Source of the DNA: an uncultured Planctomycetales bacterium
GTDB taxonomy: Bacteria > Omnitrophota > Gorgyraeia > Zapsychrales > JBDRMG01
Direction of reading: 5' to 3'
Assembly (NCBI GenBank): GCA_964478715.1
Contig: CAYZIY010000009.1
Span: forward strand, 4,113-68,112
Length of the DNA stretch: 64,000 nucleotides
Made by a program: the position numbers and the translations under genes. The notes below the pieces were generated by a model, which did not search any database, was not told where the DNA came from, and saw nothing but the letters and a program-made list of their open reading frames with translations. Positions 6,909 through 23,488 of the stretch are shown piece by piece. Each line of letters starts with the position of its first letter. Position 1 is the stretch's first letter.

Positions 6909-8195
6909 ATGCGATTGGTATTCGATTTCCTTTATCTTTGCGGCAGTCCGTTTTTTGTGCTGTATCTTTTGATTAATAGAAAGTGGCATCGGAAAATGCC
7001 GATGCGCTTTGGATGCTACTGCTCAGGTGATATAGAACAATTAAAGAGCAAGGATAATATCTGGATTCATGCCGTTAGCGTTGGAGAAGTGTTGGCTGTG
7101 CGCAAAATAATTCGCGCTCTTAAGGACAACTTTCCATTTCATCAGATTGTTATATCAACGGTGACTCAAACCGGATATGTGACTGCTCTCCATAAGGATC
7201 AAATCGCCGATATCGTCATTTACGCACCCTTTGATTTCAGTTGGATTGTCAACAAAGTCATCCGGATTATCAATCCCAAAATCTATATTTTGGCCGAAAC
7301 AGAATTCTGGCCTAATATGTTAATGACATTGAATCAGCAAAAAATTCCGGTTGTTTTGGTCAATGGAAGAATATCCGATCGATCCTTTGTTAATTATAAA
7401 CGCTGGAAATTTTTATTTCAGCAGTCTTTAAAGTCTATGCGCCTGTGTTGCATGCAAAGCGATTGTGATCAAGAGCGCCTTATTGAGATGGGAGTCGATA
7501 AGAGCCGAGTACAGGTTGTGGGCAATGTGAAATTTGATGATTTGCCAGTCGACGAAGGAATGGTTTATGATTATTTGCATATTCACGTGAATGAGCTCTG
7601 GTGGGTGGCGGGAAGTACGCATACTGGTGAAGAGGAAATAGTCTTTAGAACATATCAACGGCTATCAACTTTTTATCCCAAATTACATCTTATTCTTGCT
7701 CCGCGTCATGTGAGTCGAGTGAAGGAAATTTGTCAACTTATTGAACAGCAGGGATATCAGCCTGTCAGATATTCTGAATGTCAAAAGGTAAAGATTGACA
7801 GAGGTCAGATTGTTGTGATAGATGAGATCGGTCACCTCAAGCAAATCTATCGAATCGCTTGTTTTGTTTTTGTTGGAAAGAGTTTAAAAAAAGGCGGAGG
7901 TCAAAATATTATAGAGCCCGCTTTTTTCTTAAAACCGATTTTAGTTGGACCTCTGACGGATAATTTTCGCGATGTCGTTAAGCTCTTCCAGGATGCCCAG
8001 GCTATTGCCGTTGTGCATGATGAAAACGAACTTTTCCAAAGTGCACGCAAACTGCTTGATAATGCTAACTACCGGGAAGAAATGGGTAAAGCGGCCCATC
8101 AGGTTGTAATGAATAATGTGGGAGCTTCCGCAAGGAGTGCATCTCTGATCGCATCCGTTTTAACTGAGTCGACTCCCAGTAGTAAGAAATCATGA
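6909..8195 (+). CDS. waaA: 3-deoxy-D-manno-octulosonic acid (Kdo) transferase
   Basis: IWIHAVSVGEV, ISTVTQTG and FWPNML...PVVLVNGRIS are KdtA/WaaA hallmarks. Confidence 0.85.
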   Translation: MRLVFDFLYLCGSPFFVLYLLINRKWHRKMPMRFGCYCSGDIEQLKSKDNIWIHAVSVGEVLAVRKIIRALKDNFPFHQIVISTVTQTGYVTALHKDQIADIVIYAPFDFSWIVNKVIRIINPKIYILAETEFWPNMLMTLNQQKIPVVLVNGRISDRSFVNYKRWKFLFQQSLKSMRLCCMQSDCDQERLIEMGVDKSRVQVVGNVKFDDLPVDEGMVYDYLHIHVNELWWVAGSTHTGEEEIVFRTYQRLSTFYPKLHLILAPRHVSRVKEICQLIEQQGYQPVRYSECQKVKIDRGQIVVIDEIGHLKQIYRIACFVFVGKSLKKGGGQNIIEPAFFLKPILVGPLTDNFRDVVKLFQDAQAIAVVHDENELFQSARKLLDNANYREEMGKAAHQVVMNNVGASARSASLIASVLTESTPSSKKS

Positions 8196-9271
8196 GATCT
8201 TATTTTTACCGTTTAGCCACAGATCAAATTCATTCACCTTTGGCAAATATCTTGAAGGTCTTTTTATTGCTTGCTTCGTATGGTTATGCTTTAGGGGTGA
8301 GAGTACTTGTTTTTCTATATCGCAGGGGTCTATTAAAAACAAGTACTCTCGCTCAACCGGTGATTTGTGTCGGGAATATCACGCTTGGAGGTGTAGGAAA
8401 AACTCCTTTGGTTATAAAGATTTCTCAATATTTAAAAAGTAAAGGGATCTTAAATGCTGTTTTAACTCGAGGCTATATGGCCTCTCGTAAGGAAGGACTT
8501 CAAGAAGGAGAGCTTTTTAGCGACGAGGCCATTTTAATGCAACAGACGCTTAGTGACATTCCCGTTTTAGTCGGGGCTAACCGATATGCCCTGGCTCAAT
8601 CATTGATGGAACGCTCTATGGTGGATGTTTTTATTTTGGATGACGGGTATCAGCACTGGAAACTAAAAAAAAATCTCAATATTGTGGCGATTGATGCGAC
8701 TAACCCCTTTGGTAATGGTTATCTAGTTCCTCGTGGAATTTTGCGTGAACCTTTAAGCCATCTTAAGCGTGCCCATGTTTTTGTTATTACCAAAGTCGAT
8801 CTTGGTGCGGCCAACTTGGATCAGATCAAAACGACGTTAAGGGGCATTCATCCTCAGGCCCTGATTGTTGAATCCATCCATAAGCCAGGGGGGCTCGTTG
8901 ATCTTAATAATAAAGAATTTGATAAAACATTATCTTATTTAATGGATTGCCCAGTTTGCTTTTTTTGCAGTATCGGTAATGCACGGGCTTTTGAGCAAAC
9001 CCTTGAACGTCAAAAAGCCAAAATCATGGGAAAAATGGAATTTATGGATCATCATAGATACAATGAAGGGGATATAGATCGCATTATCCACACTTATCAG
9101 CAATCTGGCGCCGAGGTTTTGATAACTACAGAGAAAGATTTGGTTAAAATCGATTATTACTTAAATCGCCTCATCAAGCAGGCGCACCTGCTTTGTTTGA
9201 AAATTAAAATAGAGTTGACCAACAATGAAAGTGAATTCCTTCACCGGATCATTAGTCTATTGGATCGTTAA
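8192..9271 (+). CDS. lpxK: tetraacyldisaccharide 4'-kinase
   Basis: P-loop VICVGNITLGGVGKTP and LTRGY; overlaps the waaA stop. Confidence 0.85.
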   Translation: MRSYFYRLATDQIHSPLANILKVFLLLASYGYALGVRVLVFLYRRGLLKTSTLAQPVICVGNITLGGVGKTPLVIKISQYLKSKGILNAVLTRGYMASRKEGLQEGELFSDEAILMQQTLSDIPVLVGANRYALAQSLMERSMVDVFILDDGYQHWKLKKNLNIVAIDATNPFGNGYLVPRGILREPLSHLKRAHVFVITKVDLGAANLDQIKTTLRGIHPQALIVESIHKPGGLVDLNNKEFDKTLSYLMDCPVCFFCSIGNARAFEQTLERQKAKIMGKMEFMDHHRYNEGDIDRIIHTYQQSGAEVLITTEKDLVKIDYYLNRLIKQAHLLCLKIKIELTNNESEFLHRIISLLDR

Positions 9272-11201
9272 ATTTCTGGGTGTTTTGATCAGGGCCTTGC
9301 CGGTTTCTTTTGCCCATGCCTTAGGGAGGCGTATCGGCAATATAGGCTATTATCTGGATATCAAACACAAATCACTGGCCTATGCGAATCTAAAGATCGC
9401 TTTTGCCAAGACAAAGAAACCTAGCGAAATTAAGCGAATTGTCAAAGAGCTGTTTCGACATTTTGGAATGAATGTCGTCGACTTCTTACGATTGCCTCTG
9501 ATTCGCAAGCAAGGAGTCGAAAATTTTATCACTCTCAAAGGACGGGAACATGTCGAGCAGGGTTTGAAAAAAGGCAAGGGTGTCATTTTACTGGCCATGC
9601 ATTTCGGCAGCTGGGAAATCTCCAGTCTGATGGGTGACCTACTCGATCATCCCTATCGTGTGATCGTCAATCCTCAAAAAAGATTCAACCGTCTGGATCA
9701 GTTGTTGAATTCTTATCGCGGATGCGGGGGGTCAACCATCATTACTCGTGGTTCCGGAACTCGCGAGGTGATTGAATCTTTGCGGCGTAATGAGGTGATC
9801 GGCATGGTTGTGGATCAAGGTGGCAAACGGGGTTCGTTGATTAAGTTTTTTGGGCGGGAGGCTTCCATGTCGGTGGGGGCTATTCGCCTGGGGATGAAAA
9901 TGGGTACACCGGTCTGTTTTTCAATCATCATCAGAAAACCAGATGGAAAACATGAATTGATTATCCATCCGCCTTTGGAATTAAGAAATACAGGAGAAAC
10001 CGAAAGCGATCTGCAGTATAATTTAGAACCCGTCATGCAGATGATGGAGCATTATATTCGACTCTATCCGTATGGATATATATGGTTTTACAAGATTTGG
10101 AAATATTCCAAAGAGACGGCTGCGGTGATTATCCATGACGGCAAAACAGGGCATATTCGGCAGTCGCAGGCCGTTGCGCTTCAATTGGAAAAAGCGCTCT
10201 TAGAGAGAGGCATTCACTGCGCAACGGAAGTGATAGAAATTCATTTCAAAAACCGGCTTGCAAAATGCATTTTGGCTTTCTTGAGCTTGATTTCCAATGC
10301 GAATTTTTTGCAAGGGCGTATGCGTTATTTTAAGTGGTTTTTAAACAAAGAGTCCTTCAGAAAAATTAGTTCGATTAAAGCGGATTATGTTATTTCTTGC
10401 GGGTCTGCTGCGGCCTATGTCAATTATATTCTTTCCAGCGACTGTCGTGCCAAGGCCATATCGGTTCTAACACCCGGGATTCTTCCCATGCGGAAGTTCC
10501 GTCTGATCATTTTGCCCCAGCATGATCGTCATATGGTTCTCAAAAGAAAGGCTGATGTGTTGATCACTCGTGTGGCGATTAACTTAGTTAGTGAAGATTA
10601 TCTCAAAAGTCAAACACATTCTCTTTTAAAGAAATGTTCTCAATTGAAGACTGAAGAAAAATATATCGGTGTTTTTATCGGAGGAAAGTCCAAAAGGAAT
10701 TATTTGACGCTTGAACAAACAGCCATAACCATTGAACAGCTGAGGCAGGCTGCGACTCGATATCATGTTAAAATATTATGCACCACCTCGCGCAGGACGC
10801 CGCCTTTAATCGCTTCATTGATGGAAAAAGAGTTTCGTCATGATTCTTTGTGTGCTTTATTGATCTGTGCTAACAAAGAGAATATTCCCGAGGCCGTAGG
10901 CGGTATCCTTGGTTTGAGCGATATCGTGGTTGTTTCGGGAGATAGCATCAGCATGATATCCGAGTCTGTTTCTGCCGGAAAAAAAACGATTGTTCTTCTG
11001 CCCGAAGAAAGAAAAACGGTTTTTCCTGTTCGAAATAAACATAAAGAGTTTATCGATCGGCTCTTCTATCAAAATCATGTCTGGAAAACAGAAGAGAAGC
11101 ATCTCTTAAGCAGTATCAGTGAAATTATGGAGGGACATCTGAAAGTGAAGGGCATCCGTGATGATGAAAAGTTATTGCAAGCGATGAAAAGAGTGATATG
11201 A
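9225..11201 (+). CDS. lipid A biosynthesis acyltransferase (LpxL/HtrB family) fused to a C-terminal ELM1/DUF1022-like domain
   Basis: The N-terminal ~300 aa has LPLAT features (HFGSWE ... PYGYIWFYK). The C-terminal ~350 aa starts AVIIHDGKTGHIRQSQAVALQLE, typical of the DUF1022 (mitochondrial fission ELM1-like) family. Confidence 0.7.
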   Translation: MKVNSFTGSLVYWIVKFLGVLIRALPVSFAHALGRRIGNIGYYLDIKHKSLAYANLKIAFAKTKKPSEIKRIVKELFRHFGMNVVDFLRLPLIRKQGVENFITLKGREHVEQGLKKGKGVILLAMHFGSWEISSLMGDLLDHPYRVIVNPQKRFNRLDQLLNSYRGCGGSTIITRGSGTREVIESLRRNEVIGMVVDQGGKRGSLIKFFGREASMSVGAIRLGMKMGTPVCFSIIIRKPDGKHELIIHPPLELRNTGETESDLQYNLEPVMQMMEHYIRLYPYGYIWFYKIWKYSKETAAVIIHDGKTGHIRQSQAVALQLEKALLERGIHCATEVIEIHFKNRLAKCILAFLSLISNANFLQGRMRYFKWFLNKESFRKISSIKADYVISCGSAAAYVNYILSSDCRAKAISVLTPGILPMRKFRLIILPQHDRHMVLKRKADVLITRVAINLVSEDYLKSQTHSLLKKCSQLKTEEKYIGVFIGGKSKRNYLTLEQTAITIEQLRQAATRYHVKILCTTSRRTPPLIASLMEKEFRHDSLCALLICANKENIPEAVGGILGLSDIVVVSGDSISMISESVSAGKKTIVLLPEERKTVFPVRNKHKEFIDRLFYQNHVWKTEEKHLLSSISEIMEGHLKVKGIRDDEKLLQAMKRVI

Positions 11202-13297
11202 GAATTTTGCAGATACTACCCGAACTGAAAGTCGGCGGTGTAGAAACCGGAACGGTTGATTTAGCGAAATATTTGATTTCTCATGGCCATCAGGCAGTGG
11301 TTGTTTCAAACGGCGGGGAACTTGTCCAGGATTTAGAAAGAGTGAGGGCCAGGCATTATTCGTTGCCGGTTCACAAAAAGTCTTTTCTATACGCCTTTCG
11401 ATGTATTTCCGCACTTGAAAAAATTATCAAAAATGAGCAAATCGATATCGTCCATGCTCGCTCGCGGGTTCCGGCTTGGATTGCTTTTTTTGTTTGCCGC
11501 AAAACAGACACCGCTTTTATCACAACTTGTCACGGATATTATGCGACTCATTTTTTCTCTCGGGTAATGAGCTGGGCCAAGCTGATTATCGTTCCCAGCA
11601 TGGTCATCGGCCGGCATATGATTAATGACTTTAAAGTGCCTGGTGACAGCATTCGATGTATTGCCCGTAGCGTGGATTTGGATAAATTTAATTTTCCGCA
11701 AGACGAATATAAACCTAAAACAGAAAAGATTATCGCGATTATCGGACGCCTGACACCTCTAAAAGGACATACGTATTTCTTAAAATCTATGGCCAAAGTG
11801 ATTCGCACAGCACCTTATGTCAGAATCTGGATTGTCGGCGATGCCCATCTCAAGAAAGAGTCTTACAAGCAGGAGCTTTTGCTGTTGGTTAGGAGATTAG
11901 GGCTGACAAGTTATGTTGAGTTTCTGGGCAATCGAAAAGATATCCCTCAGCTGTTATCAAAGATTGACTGCCTGGTGTTCTCAAGCACGGTTCCTGAATC
12001 GTTCGGACGGGTGATCGTTGAAGCCCAAGCCGCTCGAGTTCCCGTTGTAGCGACTAAAGTCGGCGGGGTGGTGGAAATCATTGAACATGAGAAAACAGGT
12101 CTATTGGTTCTGCCTAAGGATACGGAGGCAATGGCCCGGGAAGTGTTAAGGGTTCTCAGGGACAAGCAACTGGCGCGTACGATTATCGAAGAAGCCAGAA
12201 AGAAACTAGAAACGCATTATACCCTGGATCAGATGGCCAGTCAAACCATTCAGGTTTACCAGGAGCTTTTGAATCATTTGAATATCTTAGTGATTAAATT
12301 GAGCTCATTGGGGGATGTGGTGCTGGTCATTCCTTCGCTGAGAGCTTTGCGCAGCAGATATCCGAAGGCGCGTATCTATTGTCTGGTGAGTAAGGAAGCC
12401 AGTCCGATTCTTGACCACTGTCCCTATATCGACGGCATGATTGTCATCGATATTAAGGATAAAGAAAAAAGCTGGTGGTCATTGTTGAAGATCGCCCGCA
12501 AGCTGCGCCGTTACCATTTTGATAAAATCATTGATTTTCAGAATAATCGCAAAAGTCATTTGCTTTCTTTTTTGAGTTTTCCCAGAGACAGTTACGGTTA
12601 TCATAACGGTAAGTGGAGTTGGCTTCTTTCCAGGCATATCCCTAATGACAAACCGCATTTGCCTCCTGTTTCTCACCAATTTCAAATATTAAAATTATTG
12701 GGAATTCAAGACGATACGAACGAGTCTCTGGAGCTGTGGCCTTCAAAGGGCGATGAGCGCAAAGCCCAGCAACTGCTTGATTCTGAGTGGTTGGGCAACA
12801 ATAAAAATATCATCGGAATCAATTTAGCAGCTTCTCAAAAATGGGAAAGCAAGAACTGGCCGCTTAAATATATTGCTAAAATCTGTGATCTTCTTTCGGC
12901 AAAAAATTTTAGGGTGATTCTCACCGGTGTGGAAGATGATAGGGAAGTCGCCAAGGAATTGATCAAAGCGGTTAAATCCAAACCGGCTAACCTGGTCGGG
13001 AAAACGGATCTGATGGAACTGGCGGCCCTGATTAAGCGTTGCCTGGTTTATGTCACCTGCGATTCGGCGCCTTTGCATTTGGCAGTCGCCGTGAAGACCC
13101 CGGTGGTGGCTTTATTTGGTCCGACTGATCCAAAAAGACACATGCCGTACGCCAAGGAGGCCCGGATCATCCATAAAAATGTCCGTTGCGCCCCTTGTTA
13201 CAGTGCCCGCTGTCGGATTGTCAAGCATACATGCATGAAAAATATTTCTCCAGAAGAAGTTCTTACAGCTATCGAAGATCTGATCAAAGAGGCATGA
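11198..13297 (+). CDS. bifunctional glycosyltransferase: N-terminal GT4 domain fused to a C-terminal GT9 (ADP-heptose:LPS heptosyltransferase-like) domain
   Basis: Residues 1 to about 360 form a GT4 fold (MRILQILPELKVGGVETG...EHEKTGLLV). Residues from about 365 to 699 are a GT9 domain (ILVIKLSSLGDVVLVIPSL...LVGKTDLMELAALIKRC...TCDSAPLHLAVAV). Confidence 0.75.
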   Translation: MRILQILPELKVGGVETGTVDLAKYLISHGHQAVVVSNGGELVQDLERVRARHYSLPVHKKSFLYAFRCISALEKIIKNEQIDIVHARSRVPAWIAFFVCRKTDTAFITTCHGYYATHFFSRVMSWAKLIIVPSMVIGRHMINDFKVPGDSIRCIARSVDLDKFNFPQDEYKPKTEKIIAIIGRLTPLKGHTYFLKSMAKVIRTAPYVRIWIVGDAHLKKESYKQELLLLVRRLGLTSYVEFLGNRKDIPQLLSKIDCLVFSSTVPESFGRVIVEAQAARVPVVATKVGGVVEIIEHEKTGLLVLPKDTEAMAREVLRVLRDKQLARTIIEEARKKLETHYTLDQMASQTIQVYQELLNHLNILVIKLSSLGDVVLVIPSLRALRSRYPKARIYCLVSKEASPILDHCPYIDGMIVIDIKDKEKSWWSLLKIARKLRRYHFDKIIDFQNNRKSHLLSFLSFPRDSYGYHNGKWSWLLSRHIPNDKPHLPPVSHQFQILKLLGIQDDTNESLELWPSKGDERKAQQLLDSEWLGNNKNIIGINLAASQKWESKNWPLKYIAKICDLLSAKNFRVILTGVEDDREVAKELIKAVKSKPANLVGKTDLMELAALIKRCLVYVTCDSAPLHLAVAVKTPVVALFGPTDPKRHMPYAKEARIIHKNVRCAPCYSARCRIVKHTCMKNISPEEVLTAIEDLIKEA

Positions 13298-14388
13298 TGA
13301 AAATTCTTTTTTTGACAACGCATTTCAATACCGGCGGAATCACGAGCTATCTTTTAAATCTCACCAAGGGGTTGGTCCAAGACGGTCATGAGGTTATTGT
13401 CATTTCAAGCGGCGGGAATTGTGTCGATGAACTGAAGTCTCTCCAGGCGGCAGATATCACATATGATTTAAAGACCAAGTCGGAGCTGAGCCCTAAAATT
13501 TATCTGCAGCTCAATCAATTGATACGGTTGATTAAAGAGGAATCGATTGACTTGATTCATGCTCAAACTCGCATAACGCAAGTGATGGCTCACTGCGCGC
13601 ATAAGCTGTGCGGCATACCGGTTGTAACAACGTGTCATGGTTTTTTTAGGCCGCGATGGAGCCGGAGGAAATTTCACTGCTGGGGACAGAGGGTAATCGC
13701 GATCAGCGATGATGTTTTCAGTCATCTGAAAAGCGATTTTCATTTGCCCCAAGAGCAAATGGCTCTTGTGCCTCACGGAATTGATATAGACGCTTTTCCT
13801 TTGATCGACGAGCAGAGGCGGGTCAAAACGAAACGCGAAATGAATTTAAAGGGGCCGGTTGTCGGCATTATCTCCCGACTTTCAGATGTAAAAGGGATTT
13901 CCTTCCTGATTGAGGCGATGCAGGATGTGATATCAAAATTTCCTCAAGCGCAATGTCTGATCGTGGGCGAGGGCAAAGAAGAAAAACTGCTAAGAAACAA
14001 GGTCAGCGATTTGTGTCTTCAAGAGTCTATCCATTTCTATCCGATTGTCAATCAGACCCCTAAAATGTTATCCGCCTTTGATGTGTTTGTGATGCCTTCT
14101 TTGAAAGAAGGCCTTGGGCTTTCAGTTATGGAGGCCCAGGCGATGGGGTTGCCGGTTGTGGCTTCAAGGGTCGGAGGTTTAAAAACACTGATCCAGGAAG
14201 GGAAGACCGGTTTTTTGGTTTTGCCCGCAGACAAGAAGGCCTTGACTCTGGCGATTAACCATGTATTATCCCATCCTCAACAAGCGGCCGCTATGGGTTC
14301 TCAAGCCAGGATGATGATTGAAGAAAGATTTTCTCTCAAGCAAATGACAGAAAAAACACTGGCTGTTTATCAAGAGGTTGTAAGATAA
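13294..14388 (+). CDS. GT4 family glycosyltransferase
   Basis: MKILFLTTHFNTGGITSY ... EGLGLSVMEAQAMGLPVVAS...EGKTGFLV. ATG overlaps the upstream stop as ATGATGA. Confidence 0.8.
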   Translation: MMKILFLTTHFNTGGITSYLLNLTKGLVQDGHEVIVISSGGNCVDELKSLQAADITYDLKTKSELSPKIYLQLNQLIRLIKEESIDLIHAQTRITQVMAHCAHKLCGIPVVTTCHGFFRPRWSRRKFHCWGQRVIAISDDVFSHLKSDFHLPQEQMALVPHGIDIDAFPLIDEQRRVKTKREMNLKGPVVGIISRLSDVKGISFLIEAMQDVISKFPQAQCLIVGEGKEEKLLRNKVSDLCLQESIHFYPIVNQTPKMLSAFDVFVMPSLKEGLGLSVMEAQAMGLPVVASRVGGLKTLIQEGKTGFLVLPADKKALTLAINHVLSHPQQAAAMGSQARMMIEERFSLKQMTEKTLAVYQEVVR

Positions 14389-15395
14389 TGGAAAAGATTC
14401 TTATCGTTAATGTCAATTGGCTAGGAGATGTCCTTTTTTCTTCCGCTGTTTTTCAGACCATTAAGAATAAAAGATCTGATGTTTGGTTGTCCTGCCTGGC
14501 CCATCCCCGCGTGAAAGAAATTCTTGAGATGATTCCAGGGCTGGATGAAATCATTATTTATGATGAAGATCAAAAGCATGCGACTTCCTTAAGCAAGTGG
14601 AGGTTGATTAGTCATTTAAGAAATCAAAAATTTGATCGGGTTTATCTTTTGCACCGTTCTTTAACGAGAGCTCTGCTTGTATTTCTGGCCGGGATTCCTC
14701 GTCGAATCGGCTATGCCACGAAAAACAGAGGGTTTCTTTTAACAGAGGCCTTAAAGGTTACCCCAAATGCAAAGCATCGGATGGATTATTATCTGGGTGT
14801 GATCGAGAAAGATTTTCCGATGCCTGTGAAAACATGTCGGCTCAATGTTGGGCCAGAGCAAAAAGAATATACGGTGAAGTTATTACAAAATCTGAATATC
14901 AGTCCTTCAGACAAAAAAGTGTGTATTCATCCGGCAGGGAATTGGAATCTGAAACGCTGGCCCAAAGAGTATTTCATCAGATGCATTGAGGCCTTTCAGA
15001 AAAGAGGGATTAAGGTGATTTTGATTGGAACGACCAAAGATCGCGCCTTGATTGATCAAATCAAGAAACAACTCAAAGAAGAGCCCATTGATCTTCTGGG
15101 CAAGACAAGTATCAAGCAGCTGGCCGCTTTGATGCAGATTTGTGATTGCGTGATCTCCGGCGATAGTGGACCTTTGCATATCGCCAATAGCGTGGGAGTT
15201 AAAACGATTGCTCTTTATGGGCCGACAAGCGTGGGCGTGACCGGTCCCCGCGGATTGGCCTTAAGCTCTATTCTTAGGCAGAATGTAGGATGCAATGAAA
15301 AACCGTGTTATCATCTGGCCTGTCCCGATAATATTTGTATGAAATCGATATCTGTTTTGGATGTTCTCGATGCTTTTGAACAAATTAAAAATTAA
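14388..15395 (+). CDS. GT9 family glycosyltransferase (heptosyltransferase-like)
   Basis: ILIVNVNWLGDVLFSSAV...GKTSIKQLAALMQICDCVISGDSGPLHIA. Confidence 0.8.
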   Translation: MEKILIVNVNWLGDVLFSSAVFQTIKNKRSDVWLSCLAHPRVKEILEMIPGLDEIIIYDEDQKHATSLSKWRLISHLRNQKFDRVYLLHRSLTRALLVFLAGIPRRIGYATKNRGFLLTEALKVTPNAKHRMDYYLGVIEKDFPMPVKTCRLNVGPEQKEYTVKLLQNLNISPSDKKVCIHPAGNWNLKRWPKEYFIRCIEAFQKRGIKVILIGTTKDRALIDQIKKQLKEEPIDLLGKTSIKQLAALMQICDCVISGDSGPLHIANSVGVKTIALYGPTSVGVTGPRGLALSSILRQNVGCNEKPCYHLACPDNICMKSISVLDVLDAFEQIKN

Positions 15396-16290
15396 AAAGA
15401 TCCTAGTTGTCAGCTTGAGCAATCTTGGTGATGTGATCCTTACCTTTCCGGTGATTGATATATTAATTAGCGATTTTCCGCACGCCGAGATTTCTGTAGT
15501 TGTCGGCCCCAAAGCCCGATTTTTGTTCGATCATAATGACCATATTAAATCCATTTTTATTTTCGATAAAAAATTAAAATTGTTACAGAAATATAAATGG
15601 GTGCGAGAATTACGCAAAGGACATTTTGATCTGTGCGTGGATTTACGCCAAACAGCTATCCCTCTGTTTTTATGGCCCTGTTATCATTCGTCTATACGAG
15701 CGCGCAAATATGAAGGTCTTCATATGAAAGAAAAACATCTTCAGAAATTACGGGAAATTTATGATTTTAAAGAAAAAGCAAGGGCACCACTGGCTCTTAA
15801 AGTTAGCGATCAAGACAAGGCCTGGGCCAGAGAGACTCTTAAACAGGATTCCGGTTATGCTGTTTTGGGCTGCGGCGCAGCCGATCATAAAAAAAGATGG
15901 AACAAGCAGGGTTTTGCCCGGCTGGCCGATGAGATCATCGAACGTTTTGATATGAGCGTTATCTTTGTTGGAGATGCCTCCGATCAGGAATATGGCCAGG
16001 AAATTCAATCGATCATGAAACACAAAGCTCAAAATTTATGCGGGCAAACCAATTTGACTCAGCTTAGCGCTGTCATTGGATGTGCTTCATTTGTGGTGGC
16101 CAATGACAGCGCCATTGTTCATATGGCCAGCTATTTAAACAGGCCGACATATGCCATCTTTGGTCCCAGCGATCCGTCTAAATACGGTCCCTGGAGCCGG
16201 GAAGGCCGGTTTTTTATTGGACATCCGCATGACCAGATGGCCTCGATCCATCCGGAAGAGATTCTAAAAAGCATTAAGCTGCAGGGATAA
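15361..16290 (+). CDS. GT9 family glycosyltransferase (heptosyltransferase-like)
   Basis: KILVVSLSNLGDVILTFPV...GQTNLTQLSAVIGCASFVVANDSAIVHMA. Confidence 0.75.
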   Translation: MFSMLLNKLKIKKILVVSLSNLGDVILTFPVIDILISDFPHAEISVVVGPKARFLFDHNDHIKSIFIFDKKLKLLQKYKWVRELRKGHFDLCVDLRQTAIPLFLWPCYHSSIRARKYEGLHMKEKHLQKLREIYDFKEKARAPLALKVSDQDKAWARETLKQDSGYAVLGCGAADHKKRWNKQGFARLADEIIERFDMSVIFVGDASDQEYGQEIQSIMKHKAQNLCGQTNLTQLSAVIGCASFVVANDSAIVHMASYLNRPTYAIFGPSDPSKYGPWSREGRFFIGHPHDQMASIHPEEILKSIKLQG

Positions 16291-16297
16291 GCATACA

Positions 16298-17335
16298 ATG
16301 AAGCCGGATTTCAAAAGAATTCTTGTTGTTCGCACGGATCGCGTGGGCGATGTGGTTTTGACTATTCCGGCTCTTACGTTGATCAGGAAAAATTATCCGA
16401 AATCCCATATCGCTGTTTTGGTGGCGCCCGCCACCAAAGATATCGTCAACGGACATCCGGATATCGATGAGGTAATCGTGTATGATAAAGATTATGAGCA
16501 TAAAGGAATTTTTGGCTTCTGGAAGATGAAAAATCTTCTGCAAAGCAAAAAATTTGATGTAACGATGGTCTATCACACGAAACAAAGAACCAATCTCTTA
16601 TGTTTTCTGGCCGGTATCCCGCGGCGCATCGGTTATCATAATCAGAAATACGGATTTCTATTAACCGATAAGATCTTCGATGATCGACCGCAGGGGATCA
16701 GGCATGAAAGCGAATATTGCTTGGAGATCCTCAAGCAACTCGGACTTTCTATCGATGATCAATGCCCCATGCCGTATATGCCTATTAAAGAACAAGCAAG
16801 GCAGTGGGTCAAGCAGTTTTATAAGACCAATAACATAGAAGAAAAGGACAGGCTGATTGCCATTCATCCGGGCGGAAGCGATTACACAAAGAGATGGCCG
16901 CGAGAGAAATTTGCTGAGCTGATCAATCAGATGGGAGAAAAGTATCCTTATCTATATGTGCTTGTCGGGTCAAAGGAAGTAGAAAAAATTGCCAGAACAA
17001 TTCAATCTTTGGCGAAAGTTCCCCTCATCAATGCGGTGGGCCAGACATCGATTGCGCAGCTTGCGGCCCTTTTAGAGAGATGTCAACTTCTTATTTCTAA
17101 TGATTCGGGACCTGTGCATGTGGCCACGGCTGTAGGGACACCTGTGATTTCAATTTTTGGTCAGCGTCGACGGGGAATCAGCGTGACCCGTTGGCATCCT
17201 TTGGGGAGTAAAGATATCGCCATAGAAAAAGAAATCGAAAAATGGGAGGATAAAACCCGGGAATCGAGCTATGCCGCCCTGCAGGCGATTGAGACCGAAG
17301 AAGTCTTAAGGGTTGTTGAAAGGATGTTGACTTAA
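16298..17335 (+). CDS. GT9 family glycosyltransferase (heptosyltransferase-like)
   Basis: ILVVRTDRVGDVVLTIPAL...GQTSIAQLAALLERCQLLISNDSGPVHVA. Confidence 0.8.
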   Translation: MKPDFKRILVVRTDRVGDVVLTIPALTLIRKNYPKSHIAVLVAPATKDIVNGHPDIDEVIVYDKDYEHKGIFGFWKMKNLLQSKKFDVTMVYHTKQRTNLLCFLAGIPRRIGYHNQKYGFLLTDKIFDDRPQGIRHESEYCLEILKQLGLSIDDQCPMPYMPIKEQARQWVKQFYKTNNIEEKDRLIAIHPGGSDYTKRWPREKFAELINQMGEKYPYLYVLVGSKEVEKIARTIQSLAKVPLINAVGQTSIAQLAALLERCQLLISNDSGPVHVATAVGTPVISIFGQRRRGISVTRWHPLGSKDIAIEKEIEKWEDKTRESSYAALQAIETEEVLRVVERMLT

Positions 17336-17380
17336 GTCAAAGTATAGATGAAAATAAAATGGTAAGAAAAAATGAAAAGT

Positions 17381-17421
17381 GGCACGGGCCTCTTGAAAAA
17401 GTTGAGACCCGTGCCCTTTTT
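17381..17421. terminator. bidirectional rho-independent terminator between the GT9 gene (+) and the histone-fold gene (-)
   Basis: Hairpin GGCACGGGCCTC / GAGACCCGTGCC with one mismatch, followed by CTTTTTG on the plus strand and preceded by an A-run (T-run on the minus strand). Confidence 0.6.
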
Positions 17422-17439
17422 GCTTCTCAATCAAACAAA

Positions 17440-17649: not shown

Positions 17650-17692
17650 TTCACTGTTCCTTTCTTTAACTGGTTAATGTGATTTCGTTTTA

Positions 17693-17720
17693 ATTTTATG
17701 CAAGATTTCCTATCCGTCAA
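17693..17720 (-). promoter_or_regulatory. sigma70-like promoter for the histone-fold gene (minus strand: TTGACG-N16-TAAAAT)
   Basis: Minus-strand -35 is complementary to plus 17715-17720; -10 is complementary to 17693-17698; ribosome-binding site AAGGA lies about 9 nt before the ATG. Confidence 0.4.
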
Positions 17721-17812: not shown

Positions 17813-17885
17813 CAGCGGTTGTTTTAGCTTAGAAAAATGAAAATTGGTGTTTATAACTAGAAATATTAAGATAGGAGGCAGAGAA

Positions 17886-18914
17886 ATGCATCATTATCCC
17901 CAAATCATTTCTCGATTCCGTAAAAAGAAAATACTTGTCGTTGGTGACTTGATCCTTGATCAATACATTCGGGGAAAGGTTTCACGGATTTCTCCCGAAG
18001 CGCCCGTACCGGTTGTTTTACAGGAAAACAAGCCCGAATTCTTTCCCGGGGGAGCGGCTAATGTGGCTAATAACTTGAGCTCTTTGGGAGCTCAGGTGAC
18101 ATTGGCAGGCTTTATCGGCGATGATGAAGAGGGAAAGATTCTGCTCAGATCTCTAAAATTAAAAAAGGTTTCTTCGCGTGGTATTGTAGTGGATCGAAGT
18201 ACGCCTACGTCTATGAAAACCCGCATTATCGCACAGCATCAGCAGGTGGTTCGCGTGGATCGTGAAAAGGTTAAGGACAGCGCTTCGGTGAATACGTATC
18301 CTAAGATCGAAGCTTTTTTAAGAAACAATATCCAGCGTTTTGATGCCTTGATTCTTTCCGATTACGGCAAGGGTGTCATTACACCCGTTCTAGCCCAGCA
18401 AGCTTGTGATATGGCTTTGAAACTGGGAAAAATTATTACCGTTGATCCCAAAGTTGAGCATTTCTGTTATTATAGAGGTGTTAGCGCGATTACACCCAAT
18501 CGCAATGAGGTTGAGAACGCCATTCACAATATCAAGATCACTCAGTCTAAAGGGCGGAGTTTAAAGATCAATACAGTTCGCCTGAAGAAAGATGAGCATG
18601 TCGATCAGGCCGGTATGGCTTTGTTGAAATATCTTGACCTGGGATGCCTGTTGGTCACATTGGGTGAAAACGGCATGCGTCTATTTGAGAAAGGAAAGAA
18701 GAAATCGATTTCCATAAATACGCGCGCGCAGGATGTCTATGATGTTTCTGGAGCCGGTGATACCGTTATTTCTGTTTTTACCCTGTCCTTGGCGGCTGGA
18801 GCAAGCGCGCGGGATGCGGCCGATCTTTCAAACTATGCGGCGGGCATTGTCGTTGGGAAAATGGGCGCTGTTCCGGTCACCTCCAAAGATTTACTGCAGG
18901 CGGTGAAATCATAA
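17886..18914 (+). CDS. hldA: D-glycero-beta-D-manno-heptose-7-phosphate kinase (RfaE domain I only; HldA-type, no adenylyltransferase domain)
   Basis: KILVVGDLILDQYIRGKVSRISPEAPVPVV and the C-terminal DVSGAGDTVI are PfkB/RfaE kinase motifs. Ribosome-binding site AGGAGG lies 7 nt before the ATG at 17886. Confidence 0.8.
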   Translation: MHHYPQIISRFRKKKILVVGDLILDQYIRGKVSRISPEAPVPVVLQENKPEFFPGGAANVANNLSSLGAQVTLAGFIGDDEEGKILLRSLKLKKVSSRGIVVDRSTPTSMKTRIIAQHQQVVRVDREKVKDSASVNTYPKIEAFLRNNIQRFDALILSDYGKGVITPVLAQQACDMALKLGKIITVDPKVEHFCYYRGVSAITPNRNEVENAIHNIKITQSKGRSLKINTVRLKKDEHVDQAGMALLKYLDLGCLLVTLGENGMRLFEKGKKKSISINTRAQDVYDVSGAGDTVISVFTLSLAAGASARDAADLSNYAAGIVVGKMGAVPVTSKDLLQAVKS

Positions 18915-18916
18915 AT

Positions 18917-19657
18917 ATGAAAGCCATCGGCATCATTCCGGTTAGGTATAAAGCCACGCGATTTGAAGGCAAGGTTTTAGCCGATTTAGGCGGTCAATCT
19001 GTGATCCAGCGGGTCTGGGAGAGGGCCTGTCAGGCTAAGCGCTTGGATGAAGTCCTGATCGCCTGCGATGACAAGCGGATTGAAACACACGCCAAAGATT
19101 TCGGGGCCAAAGTTGTGATGACAGATCCGCATCATGCAACCGGTTCAGATCGCGTCATTGAGGCTGCTGCCAAAACAAAAGCCGATTGCGTGGTAAATAT
19201 TCAGGGTGACGAACCGTTTATCAATCCTGAAACCATTGATATTTTAATCGAGAAATTGGTCCAAGATGAAGTAGCTGTTGCCGTAACAGCTGTCAAAAGA
19301 ATTGCGACACCGGCAGAGCTTGAAAATCCAAATATTGTCAAGGTTGTTTTCGATCATCAGGGATATGCGCTTTATTTTTCCCGGTCTCCGATACCGTTTA
19401 ATCGGGATCAACAACCTCTTGAAAGCATTGATTTTTTTCGGCATTTGGGGATTTATGCCTATCAAAAAGATTTTCTCATGCAATTTTCCCATTTACCCGA
19501 ATCGCCTTTGGAGAAAACGGAGAAACTCGAACAGCTTCGCCTATTGCAGGCCGGGTATAAAATTTTAACGGTTTGCACAGATCAGATTGCGCTCGGGATT
19601 GATACCCGGGAAGATCTCGAAGGAGCCCGAAAATTCCTCAACCAAGGAAAAGGCTGA
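18917..19657 (+). CDS. kdsB: 3-deoxy-manno-octulosonate cytidylyltransferase (CMP-Kdo synthetase)
   Basis: IGIIPVRYKATRF.GKVL and NIQGDEPFI. Confidence 0.9.
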   Translation: MKAIGIIPVRYKATRFEGKVLADLGGQSVIQRVWERACQAKRLDEVLIACDDKRIETHAKDFGAKVVMTDPHHATGSDRVIEAAAKTKADCVVNIQGDEPFINPETIDILIEKLVQDEVAVAVTAVKRIATPAELENPNIVKVVFDHQGYALYFSRSPIPFNRDQQPLESIDFFRHLGIYAYQKDFLMQFSHLPESPLEKTEKLEQLRLLQAGYKILTVCTDQIALGIDTREDLEGARKFLNQGKG

Positions 19658-20496
19658 TGCAGAAAATAATCAAGATTCGAAAAATCTCTATCGGAAACAA
19701 AAAACCTTTCACTCTTATTGCCGGTCCGTGCGTGATCGAGAATGAAAAGACGGTTTTGAAAATTGCCGGGACTCTCAAGAGAATAGCGGTCAAAGAGAGG
19801 ATACCTTTGATCTTCAAGGCGAGTTATGATAAAGCCAATCGGACATCTGTGAATTCCTTCCGTGGATTGGGTATGGAGCGGGGTCTTTCGATCTTAAAAA
19901 GAGTAAAGAATGAACTGGATCTTCCTGTTTTAAGCGATGTTCACAGCGTTAGTGAAATGGCAGCCGCCAGCGAAAACCTGGACGTTATCCAGATTCCGGC
20001 TTTTTTATGCCGTCAAACGGATCTGTTAATGGCTGCCGGAAAAACCAACAAGGTCATTAATATCAAAAAAGGCCAGTTTATGGCTCCCTGGGAGATGAGA
20101 GAGGCGGTTCGAAAAATAGAAAAAACAGGGAATGAAAAAATAATGATCACCGAGCGGGGTGTCAGTTTTGGCTACAATAATCTCGTCAGCGATTTCCGAT
20201 CATTAGAAATTATGAAGGAGTTTGGTTATCCGGTCGTTTTTGATGCGACACACAGCGTTCAGCAGCCCGGAGGATTAGGCACGGCCTCAGGCGGCCAGAG
20301 CGAATTCATTCCGGTTTTGGCGCGTTGCGCGATGGCTACCGGATGTGCCGCAATATTTCTAGAGACGCATCCTGATCCCCGGAAAGCCAAAAGCGACGGG
20401 CCCAATATGATGCCGTTAAAAAAACTCAAAGGGCTTCTTAAAAAGCTCAAAGCCCTGGATCATGTCGTTAAACATTTCAAGGACAGAGAAAAATGA
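19657..20496 (+). CDS. kdsA: 2-dehydro-3-deoxyphosphooctonate aldolase (Kdo-8-P synthase)
   Basis: FTLIAGPCVIENE, IPLIFKASYDKANRTS and QIPAFLCRQTDL. Confidence 0.9.
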   Translation: MQKIIKIRKISIGNKKPFTLIAGPCVIENEKTVLKIAGTLKRIAVKERIPLIFKASYDKANRTSVNSFRGLGMERGLSILKRVKNELDLPVLSDVHSVSEMAAASENLDVIQIPAFLCRQTDLLMAAGKTNKVINIKKGQFMAPWEMREAVRKIEKTGNEKIMITERGVSFGYNNLVSDFRSLEIMKEFGYPVVFDATHSVQQPGGLGTASGGQSEFIPVLARCAMATGCAAIFLETHPDPRKAKSDGPNMMPLKKLKGLLKKLKALDHVVKHFKDREK

Positions 20497-21452
20497 GTGT
20501 AAAACGAGCCAAAGAAGTGCTGACCATCGAATCCGAAGCGATTCGGGATCTCAAAAAGAGAATCAACCGCAATTTTACCCATGCTGTGGAGCTGATTTAT
20601 CGATGCAAGGGACGGGTGATTGTTACCGGCATGGGGAAAACCGGGATCATCGGCCACAAACTGGCCGCGACTTTATCTTCCACAGGAACGCCGAGCATTT
20701 GGATGCATAGCGCTGAGGCCATTCACGGAGATTTGGGTCAGGTCACCAAAACAGATGTCGTGATCTTAATAACAACAAGCGGAGAAACAGAAGAGACTCG
20801 CCGTCTTATTCCGCTGATCAAAAAAATCGGTGTGAAGATTATTGCCTTAACCGGTAATCTCCGCTCCTTTGTGGCCAGGCATAGCGATATCGTGCTGGAT
20901 ATTTCTGTGAAGAAAGAAGGCTGTCCGCTTGGATTGGCCCCGATGGCTTCCACGACAGCCACATTGGCCATGGGAGATGCCATGGCCGCCTGTCTGGTGG
21001 ACAGAAAGAAATTTCGCAAAGAAGATTTTGCCCGGTTTCATCCCGGTGGCTCCCTGGGGCGACGTTTGCTTTTGAGAGTCAGAGATATTATGCGGACTGG
21101 CCAATATTGTCCGCGTTTGTTGCCGTCAACAAAAGTTAAGACAGTTCTTTTAGCCATTACCAAAGCGCGATGTGGTTCGGCTTGTATTGTCGATCGTGAA
21201 AAAAATCTTCTAGGAATCTTTACCGATGGAGATTTGCGTCGTCATTTGGAAGTCGGCCCCCAGCTTCTCAATAGCTCGGTAAAAGAATTTATGACCCGAA
21301 AGCCCAAGACTATCGATCAGGATCGCCTGGCCGCTGAGGCCTTTGAAATTTTACAAGATAAAAAGATAGACGAGCTTCCCGTAGTCGACAAAAAGAAAAA
21401 ATGCGTAGGGCTTTTGGATGTTCAGGATATTCTCAAGGCAGGATGCGTATGA
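20493..21452 (+). CDS. kdsD: arabinose-5-phosphate isomerase (SIS domain plus tandem CBS domains)
   Basis: SIS motif GRVIVTGMGKTGIIGHKLAATLSSTGTPS plus CBS pairs. Confidence 0.85.
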   Translation: MSVKRAKEVLTIESEAIRDLKKRINRNFTHAVELIYRCKGRVIVTGMGKTGIIGHKLAATLSSTGTPSIWMHSAEAIHGDLGQVTKTDVVILITTSGETEETRRLIPLIKKIGVKIIALTGNLRSFVARHSDIVLDISVKKEGCPLGLAPMASTTATLAMGDAMAACLVDRKKFRKEDFARFHPGGSLGRRLLLRVRDIMRTGQYCPRLLPSTKVKTVLLAITKARCGSACIVDREKNLLGIFTDGDLRRHLEVGPQLLNSSVKEFMTRKPKTIDQDRLAAEAFEILQDKKIDELPVVDKKKKCVGLLDVQDILKAGCV

Positions 21453-21973
21453 AAGCGGCACTCCAAAAGAAAATCGAGAAGATAGAAGTGATCGTCTGCG
21501 ATGTCGATGGTGTTCTAACTGATGGAAAAATTATCTTTGATAGCAGTAGAAGCGAGATCAAACGGTTTGATGCCTACGATGGTTTCGCTCTCACTCTGGT
21601 CAAAGAAATGGGTTTCAAGACGGCTTTTTTAAGCGGACGCTCTTCGAGGGTGACTGCTCATCGGGCTTATAAACTGAAAATCGACAAAGTTTATCAGAAC
21701 GCGCATCCAAAAATAAAAGTGTTTAAGAGAATGCTTCGGGATTTTCATGTCCGCAGTGATCAGGTGTGTTTCATCGGTGATGATTTGATCGATCTACAGG
21801 TTCTTAAATCGGTTGGATTCTCGGTGGCTGTGGCCAATGCCGTCAAAGAAGTTAAGAAGGCTGTTGATTACGTTACCGCAAAAAAAGGCGGACAGGGAGC
21901 TGTGCGGGAGACGGTTGAGCTTATTTTAAAGACGCAGGGAAAATGGACGAAGGCTCTAAAGAGGTATAGCTAA
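21449..21973 (+). CDS. kdsC: Kdo-8-phosphate phosphatase (HAD family)
   Basis: IEVIVCDVDGVLTDGKIIFD and GDDLIDL; ATGA overlap with kdsD. Confidence 0.8.
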   Translation: MKAALQKKIEKIEVIVCDVDGVLTDGKIIFDSSRSEIKRFDAYDGFALTLVKEMGFKTAFLSGRSSRVTAHRAYKLKIDKVYQNAHPKIKVFKRMLRDFHVRSDQVCFIGDDLIDLQVLKSVGFSVAVANAVKEVKKAVDYVTAKKGGQGAVRETVELILKTQGKWTKALKRYS

Positions 21974-22785
21974 TGAAAATATTTTACTTGATTTTGATCA
22001 TGTGTTGTTTTATTGTTTCACATGCTTTCGGCGATAATCCTGCTCAGCAATTTGATGGATTTCGCTTAGAGGGCAAAGACGGTAATCGCGTATCGTGGGA
22101 TGTCTCCGGCGATCGGGCTGACATTTTGGGAAAGGAAATCAAGGTGACCAATGTTGTGGCTAACAAATACGGGGATGAAAACATGCATTTAACCGCTGAT
22201 AACGGAACATTGAATCAAGTCACCAAGGATATGTTGCTTGAAGATAATGTGGTGATCACGACCGATTCGGGTGCGACAATGGTTACCGATCGGTTGAATT
22301 GGCAACGGGAAAAAGATTTGGTTTCGACTGAAGATGAGGTTGTCATTAAAAGAGAACGAATGACTGCAATCGGCAAAGGTGCCGAGGCTCAACCGAATTT
22401 CAGTTCGGCCAAACTGCAGAAAGACGTGACTGTGACCGTAGATGTGGAAGATGAGCAAAAACAGATGCGAGAAGTTGTTATTACATGTGATGGTCCTCTG
22501 GAAATTGAATACGAAAACGAGAAGGCGGTTTTCAATGATAATGTGGTGGCGATTGACGGTGAGAGAAAACTGGTTGCCGATAAGGTGATTGTTTATTTTG
22601 ATATGGAAACCAATCAGATCAACAAGATGGTCTGCCAGGGTAATGTCGAAATTTATCAAGGTGACAACGCGAGCTATTCCCAGGAGGCTGTTTACTTGGC
22701 TAAGGATAAGAGGATTATTCTTTCCGGAAGACCCAAGCTCATTTTTTATCCGAAAGACGGTGGCGATGTATCTTTTGGAAACTAA
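21973..22785 (+). CDS. membrane-anchored LptC/LptA-family (OstA-like) LPS transport protein
   Basis: N-terminal hydrophobic anchor, then OstA-like beta-jellyroll segments: ...NVVITTDSGATMVTDRLNW... and ITCDGPLEIEYENEKAVFNDNVVAIDGERKLVADKVIVYF...CQGNVEIYQG. It occupies the position of lptC-lptA between kdsC and lptB. Confidence 0.6.
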   Translation: MKIFYLILIMCCFIVSHAFGDNPAQQFDGFRLEGKDGNRVSWDVSGDRADILGKEIKVTNVVANKYGDENMHLTADNGTLNQVTKDMLLEDNVVITTDSGATMVTDRLNWQREKDLVSTEDEVVIKRERMTAIGKGAEAQPNFSSAKLQKDVTVTVDVEDEQKQMREVVITCDGPLEIEYENEKAVFNDNVVAIDGERKLVADKVIVYFDMETNQINKMVCQGNVEIYQGDNASYSQEAVYLAKDKRIILSGRPKLIFYPKDGGDVSFGN

Positions 22786-23488
22786 AAATATTTGTAAAGT
22801 TTACGGTGGCCGGAAAGTCGTTGACGGATTGGATATATCCGTAAGACGTTCGGAAATTGTCGGATTACTGGGACCCAATGGGGCGGGTAAAACGACGACT
22901 TTTTACATGGTGGTGGGTATTATTCCGCCCAATGAAGGTCAGATCATTTTTGATCAGGAAGACATTACCAAAAAACCGATTCATGAACGATCCCGTTTAG
23001 GTATTGGATATCTAGCCCAGGAACCTTCGGTTTTTCGCAAATTGACCGTTGAAGAAAATATCATGGCTATTCTGGAGACTTTACGAATTTCCCCCCGGGA
23101 AAGACGTCGGCGCCTCAATGCGTTGCTCGAGGAACTCAAAATTGCTCATTTGGCTAAAAGCAAGGCTTATACCCTATCGGGCGGAGAGAGACGGCGTTTG
23201 GAAATTACCCGGGCGCTGGTGACTAAGCCGTCCTTTATTCTTTTGGATGAACCTTTTTCCGGAATTGATCCAATAGTTGTAGCCGAAGCACAGGAGATCA
23301 TCAAGGATCTTAAGAATCGTGGCCTGGGAATCCTTTTAACCGACCATAATGTCCGCGAGACTCTCTCGATTACTGATCGGTCTTATCTCATTGCCGACGG
23401 TAAGGTTTTAATTTCCGGGTCCAGTGAGGATTTAATTAACAATCCGCGGGCCAAGGAAATTTATTTGGGAGAGAAGTTTTCTATGTGA
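22766..23488 (+). CDS. lptB: LPS export ABC transporter ATP-binding protein
   Basis: Walker A GLLGPNGAGKTTTF, signature LSGGERRRLEI and Walker B ILLDEP. Start is the ATG at 22766; the upstream part of the listed ORF overlaps the lptC/A gene. Confidence 0.9.
   Translation: MYLLETKNICKVYGGRKVVDGLDISVRRSEIVGLLGPNGAGKTTTFYMVVGIIPPNEGQIIFDQEDITKKPIHERSRLGIGYLAQEPSVFRKLTVEENIMAILETLRISPRERRRRLNALLEELKIAHLAKSKAYTLSGGERRRLEITRALVTKPSFILLDEPFSGIDPIVVAEAQEIIKDLKNRGLGILLTDHNVRETLSITDRSYLIADGKVLISGSSEDLINNPRAKEIYLGEKFSM

Follow-up and report, generated by a model that had tools for sequence, protein, structure and literature searches.

A conserved fusion of an LpxL-family acyltransferase with a KdoT-type glycosyltransferase module in Omnitrophota

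Introduction

The outer-core locus of Acinetobacter baumannii begins with the gene for GtrOC1, a bacterial protein of the ELM1 family. The function of this family in bacteria was defined by two papers from the Trent laboratory in 2024-2025 (PMC10936431; PMC12856342). Deletion of A1S_2903 (GtrOC1) in A. baumannii leads to a Kdo2-lipid A chemotype (PMC10936431), and the purified protein, renamed KdoT, moves one 3-deoxy-D-manno-oct-2-ulosonic acid (Kdo) residue from cytidine 5'-monophosphate (CMP)-Kdo onto Kdo2-lipid IVA (PMC12856342). Here, we analyzed a gene in which a KdoT-type module is joined to an acyltransferase module of the LpxL family. It occupies positions 9225..11201 (+) of a 64,000-nucleotide stretch (the window) of contig CAYZIY010000009.1, deposited under the name uncultured Planctomycetales bacterium.

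KdoT prefers Kdo2-lipid IVA over hexa-acylated Kdo2-lipid A as its acceptor and is inactive on lipid IVA (PMC12856342). The motif SRRT is invariant in the KdoT family; its arginines have been modeled beside the donor carboxylate of CMP-Kdo, and R180 is needed for activity (PMC12856342). A distant homolog from Rickettsia complements a kdoT deletion in A. baumannii (PMC12856342). The GT4 enzyme GnaT (LpsB) next adds N-acetylglucosaminuronic acid (GlcNAcA), and persistence of the third Kdo (KdoIII) in vivo depends on GnaT (PMC12856342). The 2025 paper mentions neither fusions nor LpxL partners (PMC12856342). We found no published description of an LpxL::KdoT or LpxK::KdoT fusion in the searchable literature, and no papers under the name DUF1022. 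The names given to the fusions in databases cover one domain, being either "KDO2-lipid IV(A) lauroyltransferase" or, as on the NCBI fusion proteins, "ELM1/GtrOC1 family putative glycosyltransferase."

Results

Two lipopolysaccharide enzyme modules share one open reading frame across Omnitrophota

The open reading frame (ORF) listing of the window contains a single ATG-initiated frame at 9225..11201 (+), encoding 658 amino acids plus stop. Its ATG overlaps the 3' end of lpxK by 47 nucleotides and its stop overlaps the ATG of the next gene (ATGA); a protein in NCBI (P0001) is 100% identical. Two nonoverlapping Pfam domains, both scoring far above their curated cut-offs, were found in the product: PF03279 (Lip_A_acyltrans) at amino acids 10 to 293 (E = 6.8e-47; 160.5 bits against a cut-off of 22.3) and PF06258 (Mito_fiss_Elm1) at amino acids 309 to 623 (E = 1.6e-37; 129.7 bits against a cut-off of 27). 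A sequence-only reading of this DNA, made before the present analysis, had claimed a 658-residue fusion of an LpxL-family acyltransferase with an ELM1/DUF1022 domain, and both the frame and the two assignments agree with what we found; the strings that it quoted lie at amino acids 126 to 131 (HFGSWE), 282 to 290 (PYGYIWFYK), and 300 to 310 (AVIIHDGKTGH). The N-terminal LpxL/LpxM/LpxP-family lipid A secondary acyltransferase module spans amino acids 1 to 294 (9225..10106, +; Pfam, Foldseek, and phmmer), and the KdoT-type (ELM1/GtrOC1) GT-B glycosyltransferase module spans amino acids 298 to 658 (10116..11198, +). They meet at the linkerless junction PYGYIWFYKIWKYSKE (amino acids 282 to 297; 10068..10115, +), where the C-terminal LpxL motif abuts β-strand 1 of the GT-B domain. 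The AlphaFold model of the full-length fusion has a predicted local distance difference test score (pLDDT) of 90.3 and a predicted template modeling score (pTM) of 0.87.

A homolog search over 5.8 billion proteins gave 492 matches. The best 120 of the 492 are 628 to 672 amino acids long, carry both Pfam domains at 46 to 58% identity, and come from many independent assemblies; the organism, where the source names one, is Candidatus Omnitrophota. With the identical NCBI protein lying on a contig of 82,105 bp, the window appears to be part of an Omnitrophota metagenome-assembled genome. Conservation of the junction and motifs was read from an alignment of 49 full-length homologs (46 to 58% identity). 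The junction is gapless and among the most conserved stretches of this alignment (WFYKIWKYSKE, four to five variable residues, then ILxDGKTGH), and the spacing from KIWKY to D...GH is fixed at 10 residues in every ORF with both junction motifs (49/49). When one genome per GTDB species was scanned with a five-sequence query alignment, at least 436 genomes proved to encode a relative. We examined the best 80 loci (all Omnitrophota) together with two fetched separately. Both domains lie in a single ORF at 79 of the 82 loci, the other three being cut by the contig start; that is, at 79 of 79 evaluable loci. Given near-full-length homologs from independent assemblies, a single ORF wherever one could be evaluated, and a gapless conserved junction, a frameshift (which the earlier reading had named as something to check) or a misassembly at the junction is ruled out. 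The fusion is genuine and phylum-wide in Omnitrophota.

The C-terminal module is homologous to KdoT

KdoT peptides were decoded from published mutagenesis primers (MHIVYVSDGKAGHRSQALG, AVIPEHDGIPA, ILTTSRRTPAE, and RVATYLLAKN), and the KdoT gene was recovered from metagenome contigs via the wild-type DNA pattern of the SRRT region. The recovered gene (L086:2751-3641) encodes a 296-amino-acid KdoT that matches all primer-derived peptides, and ilvE immediately precedes it, which is the position expected of gtrOC1; its product scores 202.8 bits against PF06258. The C-terminal module shares 25% identity with this protein over 289 amino acids (BLASTP; E = 6e-14), and a profile of the module and 15 relatives matches it with a probability of 99.8% (hhalign; E = 1.1e-27). 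The predicted fold is GT-B, as the earlier reading had expected, with two Rossmann-like lobes.

Landmark residues of KdoT have counterparts in the module. The TTSRRT segment (10782..10799, +), which holds the donor-site motif SRRT of the family, aligns with ILTTSRRTP of KdoT, placing S522, R523, R524, and T525 of the fusion opposite S178, R179, R180, and T181, with R524 as the equivalent of R180. All 49 fusion homologs carry SRRT unchanged, and 77 of 80 ORFs contain it; across a 16-sequence alignment of relatives (A3), SRR is kept and T is nearly invariant. The donor-lobe helix SGDSISMISE (10935..10964, +), in which S574, M577, and E580 are invariant, aligns through GDSISMISE with EDSVSMVFE of KdoT. 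The PQHD motif (10515..10526, +) aligns with PEHD, so that H433 and D434 match KdoT H109 and D110; among fused and stand-alone relatives alike, H433 does not vary and D434 is conserved. The DGKTGH loop (10137..10154, +) places D305 and H310 opposite D8 and H13, whose alanine mutants remained active in KdoT (PMC12856342). H310 is invariant in the 49-sequence alignment, while H13 was reported not to be conserved outside Acinetobacter (PMC12856342), indicating differences between subfamilies.

Alignment gaps against A. baumannii KdoT delimit an insertion of ~40 residues in the acceptor (N) lobe (amino acids ~341 to 381; 10245..10367, +), modeled as helices 344 to 356, 365 to 372, and 375 to 382, which are of lower pLDDT and partly hydrophobic. 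The insertion is common to the Omnitrophota fusions and the stand-alone relatives described below and is without counterpart in A. baumannii KdoT. Contact with the membrane or with the lipid acceptor is a possible role.

The description of DUF1022, in the sequence-only reading, as a family of unknown bacterial function is out of date, since the function of KdoT has been known since 2024-2025. The lipid A or inner-core modifying activity that was predicted for the domain in the same reading is supported: an A. baumannii member of the family is a CMP-Kdo:Kdo2-lipid IVA Kdo transferase, and the module described here is its homolog and carries SRRT.

The N-terminal module belongs to the lipid A acyltransferase family

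The closest solved structure to the N-terminal module by sequence is A. baumannii LpxM (PDB 5KN7; phmmer, E = 8e-12). In this alignment, which stops at K293, HFGSWE of the fusion is paired with HFGTWE of LpxM. A Foldseek search with the model also returned LpxM (5KN7/5KNK; E ~6e-14; target template modeling [TM] score, 0.68 to 0.69), with PatA among the further matches. H126 and E131 of the catalytic HX4E motif (9600..9617, +) are invariant in 49 of 49 homologs, and 79 of 80 two-domain ORFs contain HxG[SN]WE. The helix at amino acids 5 to 24, SFTGSLVYWIVKFLGVLIRA (9237..9296, +; AlphaFold2 helix 5 to 24; top Kyte-Doolittle windows at amino acids 7 to 33), is the most hydrophobic segment of the fusion and is probably a membrane anchor, as in LpxL and LpxM.

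Assignment of the module to LpxL, LpxM, or LpxP by NCBIfam equivalogs failed: all 17 matches fell below their cut-offs, the best (NF006270) scoring 139.4 bits against a cut-off of 248. The module is therefore placed only at the level of the LpxL/LpxM/LpxP-type family, with no acyl chain or position assigned.

The fusion lies in an operon for lipid IVA, Kdo transfer, and core assembly

The fusion gene is preceded by waaA (Kdo transferase, GT30; 6909..8195, +; PF04413, E = 2.7e-59) and lpxK (lipid A 4'-kinase; 8192..9271, +; PF02606, E = 3.7e-76), the product of which makes lipid IVA. Directly downstream, a 699-amino-acid GT4::GT9 fusion (11198..13297, +; Pfam and NCBIfam) is followed by one GT4 and three GT9 (heptosyltransferase-family) genes (13294..17335, +; GT4 start refined to ATG 13294/13297). 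From waaA to the GT9 genes, the run is co-directional with overlapping stops and starts. Further downstream (17844..23488, +) lie genes for a PfkB-family sugar kinase, kdsB, kdsA, kdsD, kdsC, a protein with LptC and LptA domains, and lptB; kdsB/A/D/C make up a complete CMP-Kdo supply in the same cluster as the fusion. The Kdo/heptose setting recognized in the sequence-only reading is thus borne out by waaA, lpxK, the GT9 genes, and the kds set. Across the loci examined, the gene order topA-xerC-waaA-lpxK-fusion-GT4::GT9-GT4-GT9-GT9-GT9 is near invariant, with kdsB/A/D/C coming after it.

The GT4::GT9 gene comes after the ELM1 domain in nearly all loci, and its position beside that domain is conserved in loci L001-L083, L087/88, and L091, the last from a metagenome-assembled genome (MAG) labeled Deltaproteobacteria. 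The GT4 module spans amino acids ~1 to 360 and the GT9 module amino acids ~362 to 699, with heptosyltransferase II as the best NCBIfam match of the latter. By analogy, the GT4 module is a candidate functional counterpart of GnaT. The N terminus of A. baumannii GnaT derived from primers, MKVMQLLPELNS, resembles that of GT4::GT9, MRILQILPELKV, a generic GT4 hint only.

Several further features of the window were observed. A gap of ~500 bp without a sizeable ORF (17336-17843) separates the last GT9 gene from the PfkB/kds block and may be a promoter or regulatory region dividing two transcription units; an Rfam scan of the window, including this gap, gave no match. The LptC/LptA protein is encoded by a 270-amino-acid ORF (21973-22785, +) with an LptC domain at amino acids 56 to 155 and an LptA/LptD_N domain at amino acids 176 to 266, apparently a further fusion of consecutive proteins of the lipopolysaccharide (LPS) pathway; it overlaps the start of the lptB ORF (22589-23488), and the start codons are uncertain. 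In L001, two of the GT9 genes have a PilZ gene between them; in L002, a PilZ gene is situated downstream of the cluster. Between serA-like and purA genes, a 241-amino-acid ORF (27926-28651, +) has no Pfam match at E ≤ 1e-5. All long ORFs with a Pfam assignment in the window (1-64000) are on the + strand, and every 2-kb bin has a positive GC skew, which makes the rise of the cumulative skew monotonic; a single replichore with a very strong gene-strand bias is indicated. Records named "uncultured Planctomycetales bacterium" (L004, L006, L008, L013, L018, L021, L025, and others) share the operon and fusion with records named Omnitrophota, which suggests that the taxonomic labels of these submissions are inconsistent.

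Relatives of the C-terminal domain occur in other architectures

An exhaustive search with the C-terminal domain alone over 1.84 billion cluster representatives returned 1,438 relatives at E ≤ 1e-3, of which 193 reach E ≤ 1e-30, the best 150 being mostly fusions of ~650 amino acids. Pfam also identified LpxK::ELM1 fusions (about 38 clusters, ~700 to 740 amino acids; for example P0141, P0201, P0284, and locus L083), the named sources of which are all Omnitrophota. In a complete 1.55-Mb genome, LpxK::ELM1 occupies the operon slot of the fusion with GT4::GT9 next, and the locus lacks the LpxL module. WaaA::LpxK fusions of 757 to 817 amino acids are likewise found in Omnitrophota (P0313, P0315, P0319, P0320, P0322, P0324, P0326, P0338, and P0350). 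Omnitrophota thus seem to fuse neighboring LPS enzymes repeatedly.

Stand-alone relatives were found in the order lpxK-ELM1-GT4::GT9 (L087), in the Deltaproteobacteria-labeled MAG (L091; ELM1-GT4::GT9), and in the diderm firmicute Natroniella acetigena (L089/L090; WP_248626980.1). In N. acetigena, the order is waaA, a Kdo/WaaP-family kinase gene, ELM1, GT4, two more such kinase genes, an O-antigen-ligase-family gene, and GT9; this compact core locus also has a PIG-L deacetylase gene. A GT4 module is encoded directly after the ELM1 domain in the window, L083, L087/88, L089/90, and L091. On the question, raised with the sequence-only reading, of whether DUF1022 genes neighbor lpxL or waaA in other genomes, stand-alone genes adjoin waaA (L089) and also lpxK (L087); P0261 has no LPS genes nearby. 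Several short "stand-alone" representatives turned out to be fusion fragments and were not counted as unfused: P0139, from the contig-cut L082; P0172, with the tail of an LpxL module; and P0155 and P0169, which cluster with members of ~650 amino acids. A tblastn search of plasmids with the C-terminal domain gave no match. In a KdoT-rooted tree of ELM1 domains, the stand-alone proteins from outside Omnitrophota are basal and most LpxK fusions form one block among the LpxL fusions; as a neighbor-joining tree without support values, it offers a hint only.

Discussion

These data support the idea that the fusion is a bifunctional enzyme, in which an LpxL-type acyltransferase and a KdoT-type Kdo transferase both act on Kdo2-lipid IVA. 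The preference of purified KdoT for Kdo2-lipid IVA favors a shared substrate, and the LpxK::ELM1 fusions and stand-alone relatives in comparable gene contexts lend independent support. We consider this reading probable, and we infer the donor, acceptor, Kdo position, order of reactions, and channeling that it includes. LpxK makes lipid IVA, which WaaA converts to Kdo2-lipid IVA, the predicted common substrate of the two modules. The N-terminal module, through its H126/E131 dyad, would add an acyl chain from acyl-acyl carrier protein to the lipid A precursor. The C-terminal module, as an inverting GT-B enzyme, would transfer Kdo from CMP-Kdo, supplied by the products of kdsB/A/D/C encoded a few kilobases downstream, to place an extra inner-core Kdo (KdoIII by analogy) on Kdo2-lipid IVA. 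In the linkerless fusion, the LpxL helix would hold at the membrane a KdoT module that is otherwise soluble, and the two modifications would be coupled. Capping of the new Kdo would probably follow, carried out by the GT4 module encoded just downstream in the way that GnaT acts in Acinetobacter; heptose would come from the GT9 modules. A rigid two-site arrangement is compatible with the modeled pTM of 0.87 and the fixed junction length.

Several observations weigh against this proposal. At 25% identity to KdoT, the sole biochemically characterized member, the module could differ from it in donor, acceptor, and linkage, and the ~40-residue acceptor-lobe insertion of the Omnitrophota-type domain is not in KdoT. 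No catalytic base was found in KdoT (PMC12856342), so that SRRT is the sole residue-level test of activity. The below-cut-off scores of the N-terminal module give no LpxL, LpxM, or LpxP specificity or Kdo dependence. The two-site arrangement is drawn from pTM and junction length. In the literature searched, we found no chemical structure of an Omnitrophota LPS, so the third Kdo is a prediction.

The main rival explanation, which we regard as unlikely but worth serious weight, is that the C-terminal module is an active inner-core or lipid A GT-B glycosyltransferase with a different donor (another ulosonic acid or a nucleoside diphosphate-hexose) or a different Kdo position, for example that of the second Kdo, should the local WaaA be monofunctional. 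The low identity and the acceptor-lobe insertion would fit such a divergence, as would the invariance here of a histidine reported as nonconserved outside Acinetobacter; in addition, the number of Kdo residues added by this WaaA is not readable from its sequence. However, the donor-lobe motifs GG, TTSRRTP, and DSxSMxxE are common to KdoT, where the SRRT arginines are modeled near the CMP-Kdo carboxylate. The divergent Rickettsia homolog nevertheless complements a kdoT deletion, and the cluster of the fusion also encodes the CMP-Kdo pathway.

It is improbable that the N-terminal module acylates another glycolipid or the core rather than lipid A, in the manner of the PatA-type phosphatidylinositol mannoside (PIM) acyltransferases of the same superfamily. 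PatA is among the Foldseek matches and every NCBIfam equivalog score is below its cut-off, but the best sequence and structure matches are to the lipid A enzymes LpxL/LpxM, and the gene sits between lpxK and core glycosyltransferase genes in a conserved operon. Slightly less plausible still is that the C-terminal module is a noncatalytic scaffold or regulator of the acyltransferase, comparable to the dynamin-recruiting ELM1 of plants. The family is indeed named after a nonenzymatic eukaryotic adaptor, and an assistive role was weighed by the authors of the 2024 mBio paper before the biochemistry was done (PMC10936431). Yet KdoT alone is catalytic in vitro (PMC12856342), the domain is retained without the LpxL module in LpxK::ELM1 and stand-alone forms, and SRRT (49/49 and 77/80, as above) and other donor-lobe residues are conserved in diverged fusions; because of this motif conservation, a purely structural role is unlikely. 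That the fusion is an artefact of a frameshift, a misassembly, or the merging of two genes, which was considered since the window appears, from its relatives, to be metagenome assembled, can be dismissed, as nothing was found in its favor and it conflicts with the two-domain homologs of 628 to 672 amino acids from independent assemblies, the single ORF at all evaluable loci, and the strongly conserved, gapless junction.

With the bifunctional acyltransferase and Kdo transferase as the preferred reading, the fusion offers a separate, "Rosetta stone" line of evidence for the recently assigned function of the ELM1 family in bacteria, tying it physically to enzymes that make or use Kdo2-lipid IVA. 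Beyond Acinetobacter and Rickettsia, the KdoT pathway would then reach a whole candidate phylum, with a relative encoded in at least 436 species-level genomes, as well as further diderm lineages. An enzyme that is bifunctional and tethered to the membrane by nature could also help with questions left by the 2025 paper, namely, dependence on GT4 in vivo, timing relative to late acylation, and binding of the lipid acceptor. A bolder possibility, to which we give tentative credence and which is doubtful at present, is that the KdoT-type domain and the GT4 enzyme that follows it form an old, widespread inner-core module (in Omnitrophota, the deltaproteobacterial MAG, Natroniella, Acinetobacter, and Rickettsia) that in Omnitrophota was welded to LpxL or LpxK as a fixed two-site machine, acylating and Kdo-glycosylating one bound Kdo2-lipid IVA without release. 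If the module is that old and widespread, the rule that WaaA adds all inner-core Kdo would be broadly wrong; if the machine is so fixed, late acylation and core branching would be obligatorily coupled.

Comparison with known systems

Plant ELM1, the namesake of PF06258, is in the same Pfam family as the C-terminal module but is an adaptor for a dynamin-related protein at the eukaryotic outer mitochondrial membrane, and the bacterial context is unrelated. WaaA/KdtA belongs to a different family (GT30): the C-terminal module has 11% identity to WaaA and no match to the N-terminal Kdo-transferase domain PF04413 in Pfam, and a separate waaA lies two genes upstream. With LpxL, LpxM, and LpxP (PF03279; LpxM PDB 5KN7), the N-terminal module has in common its fold, a hydrophobic helix at the N terminus, and two motifs, HX4E and the C-terminal YxWxYKxxK; the characterized enzymes are single-domain proteins of ~300 to 330 amino acids, whereas the fusion runs without a linker into a glycosyltransferase. 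The LpxK::ELM1 and WaaA::LpxK fusions (P0141, P0284; P0313, P0319) are alike in operon slot, in ELM1 subfamily, and in the joining of consecutive enzymes of the lipid IVA and Kdo2-lipid IVA stage. The partner in LpxK::ELM1 is, in contrast, the 4'-kinase, at a locus without the LpxL module.

KdoT (GtrOC1/A1S_2903) is a 296-amino-acid stand-alone protein encoded in an outer-core locus beside ilvE, whereas the domain described here is 361 amino acids long, contains the ~40-residue insertion, is covalently attached to an LpxL-type acyltransferase, and is encoded in a waaA-lpxK operon, with an activity that we infer. The two share the Pfam family PF06258, clear pairwise and profile homology, the GT-B fold, the SRRT, DGKxGH, PxHD, GG, and DSxSMxxE motifs, and a setting among LPS core genes in which a GT4 gene or domain comes immediately next, in action or in position. 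The fusion corroborates and extends the KdoT pathway, and the mechanism itself is no surprise. Each half belongs to a known family; the covalent LpxL::KdoT arrangement, with its sibling LpxK::KdoT, is the part that we did not find described in the searchable literature.

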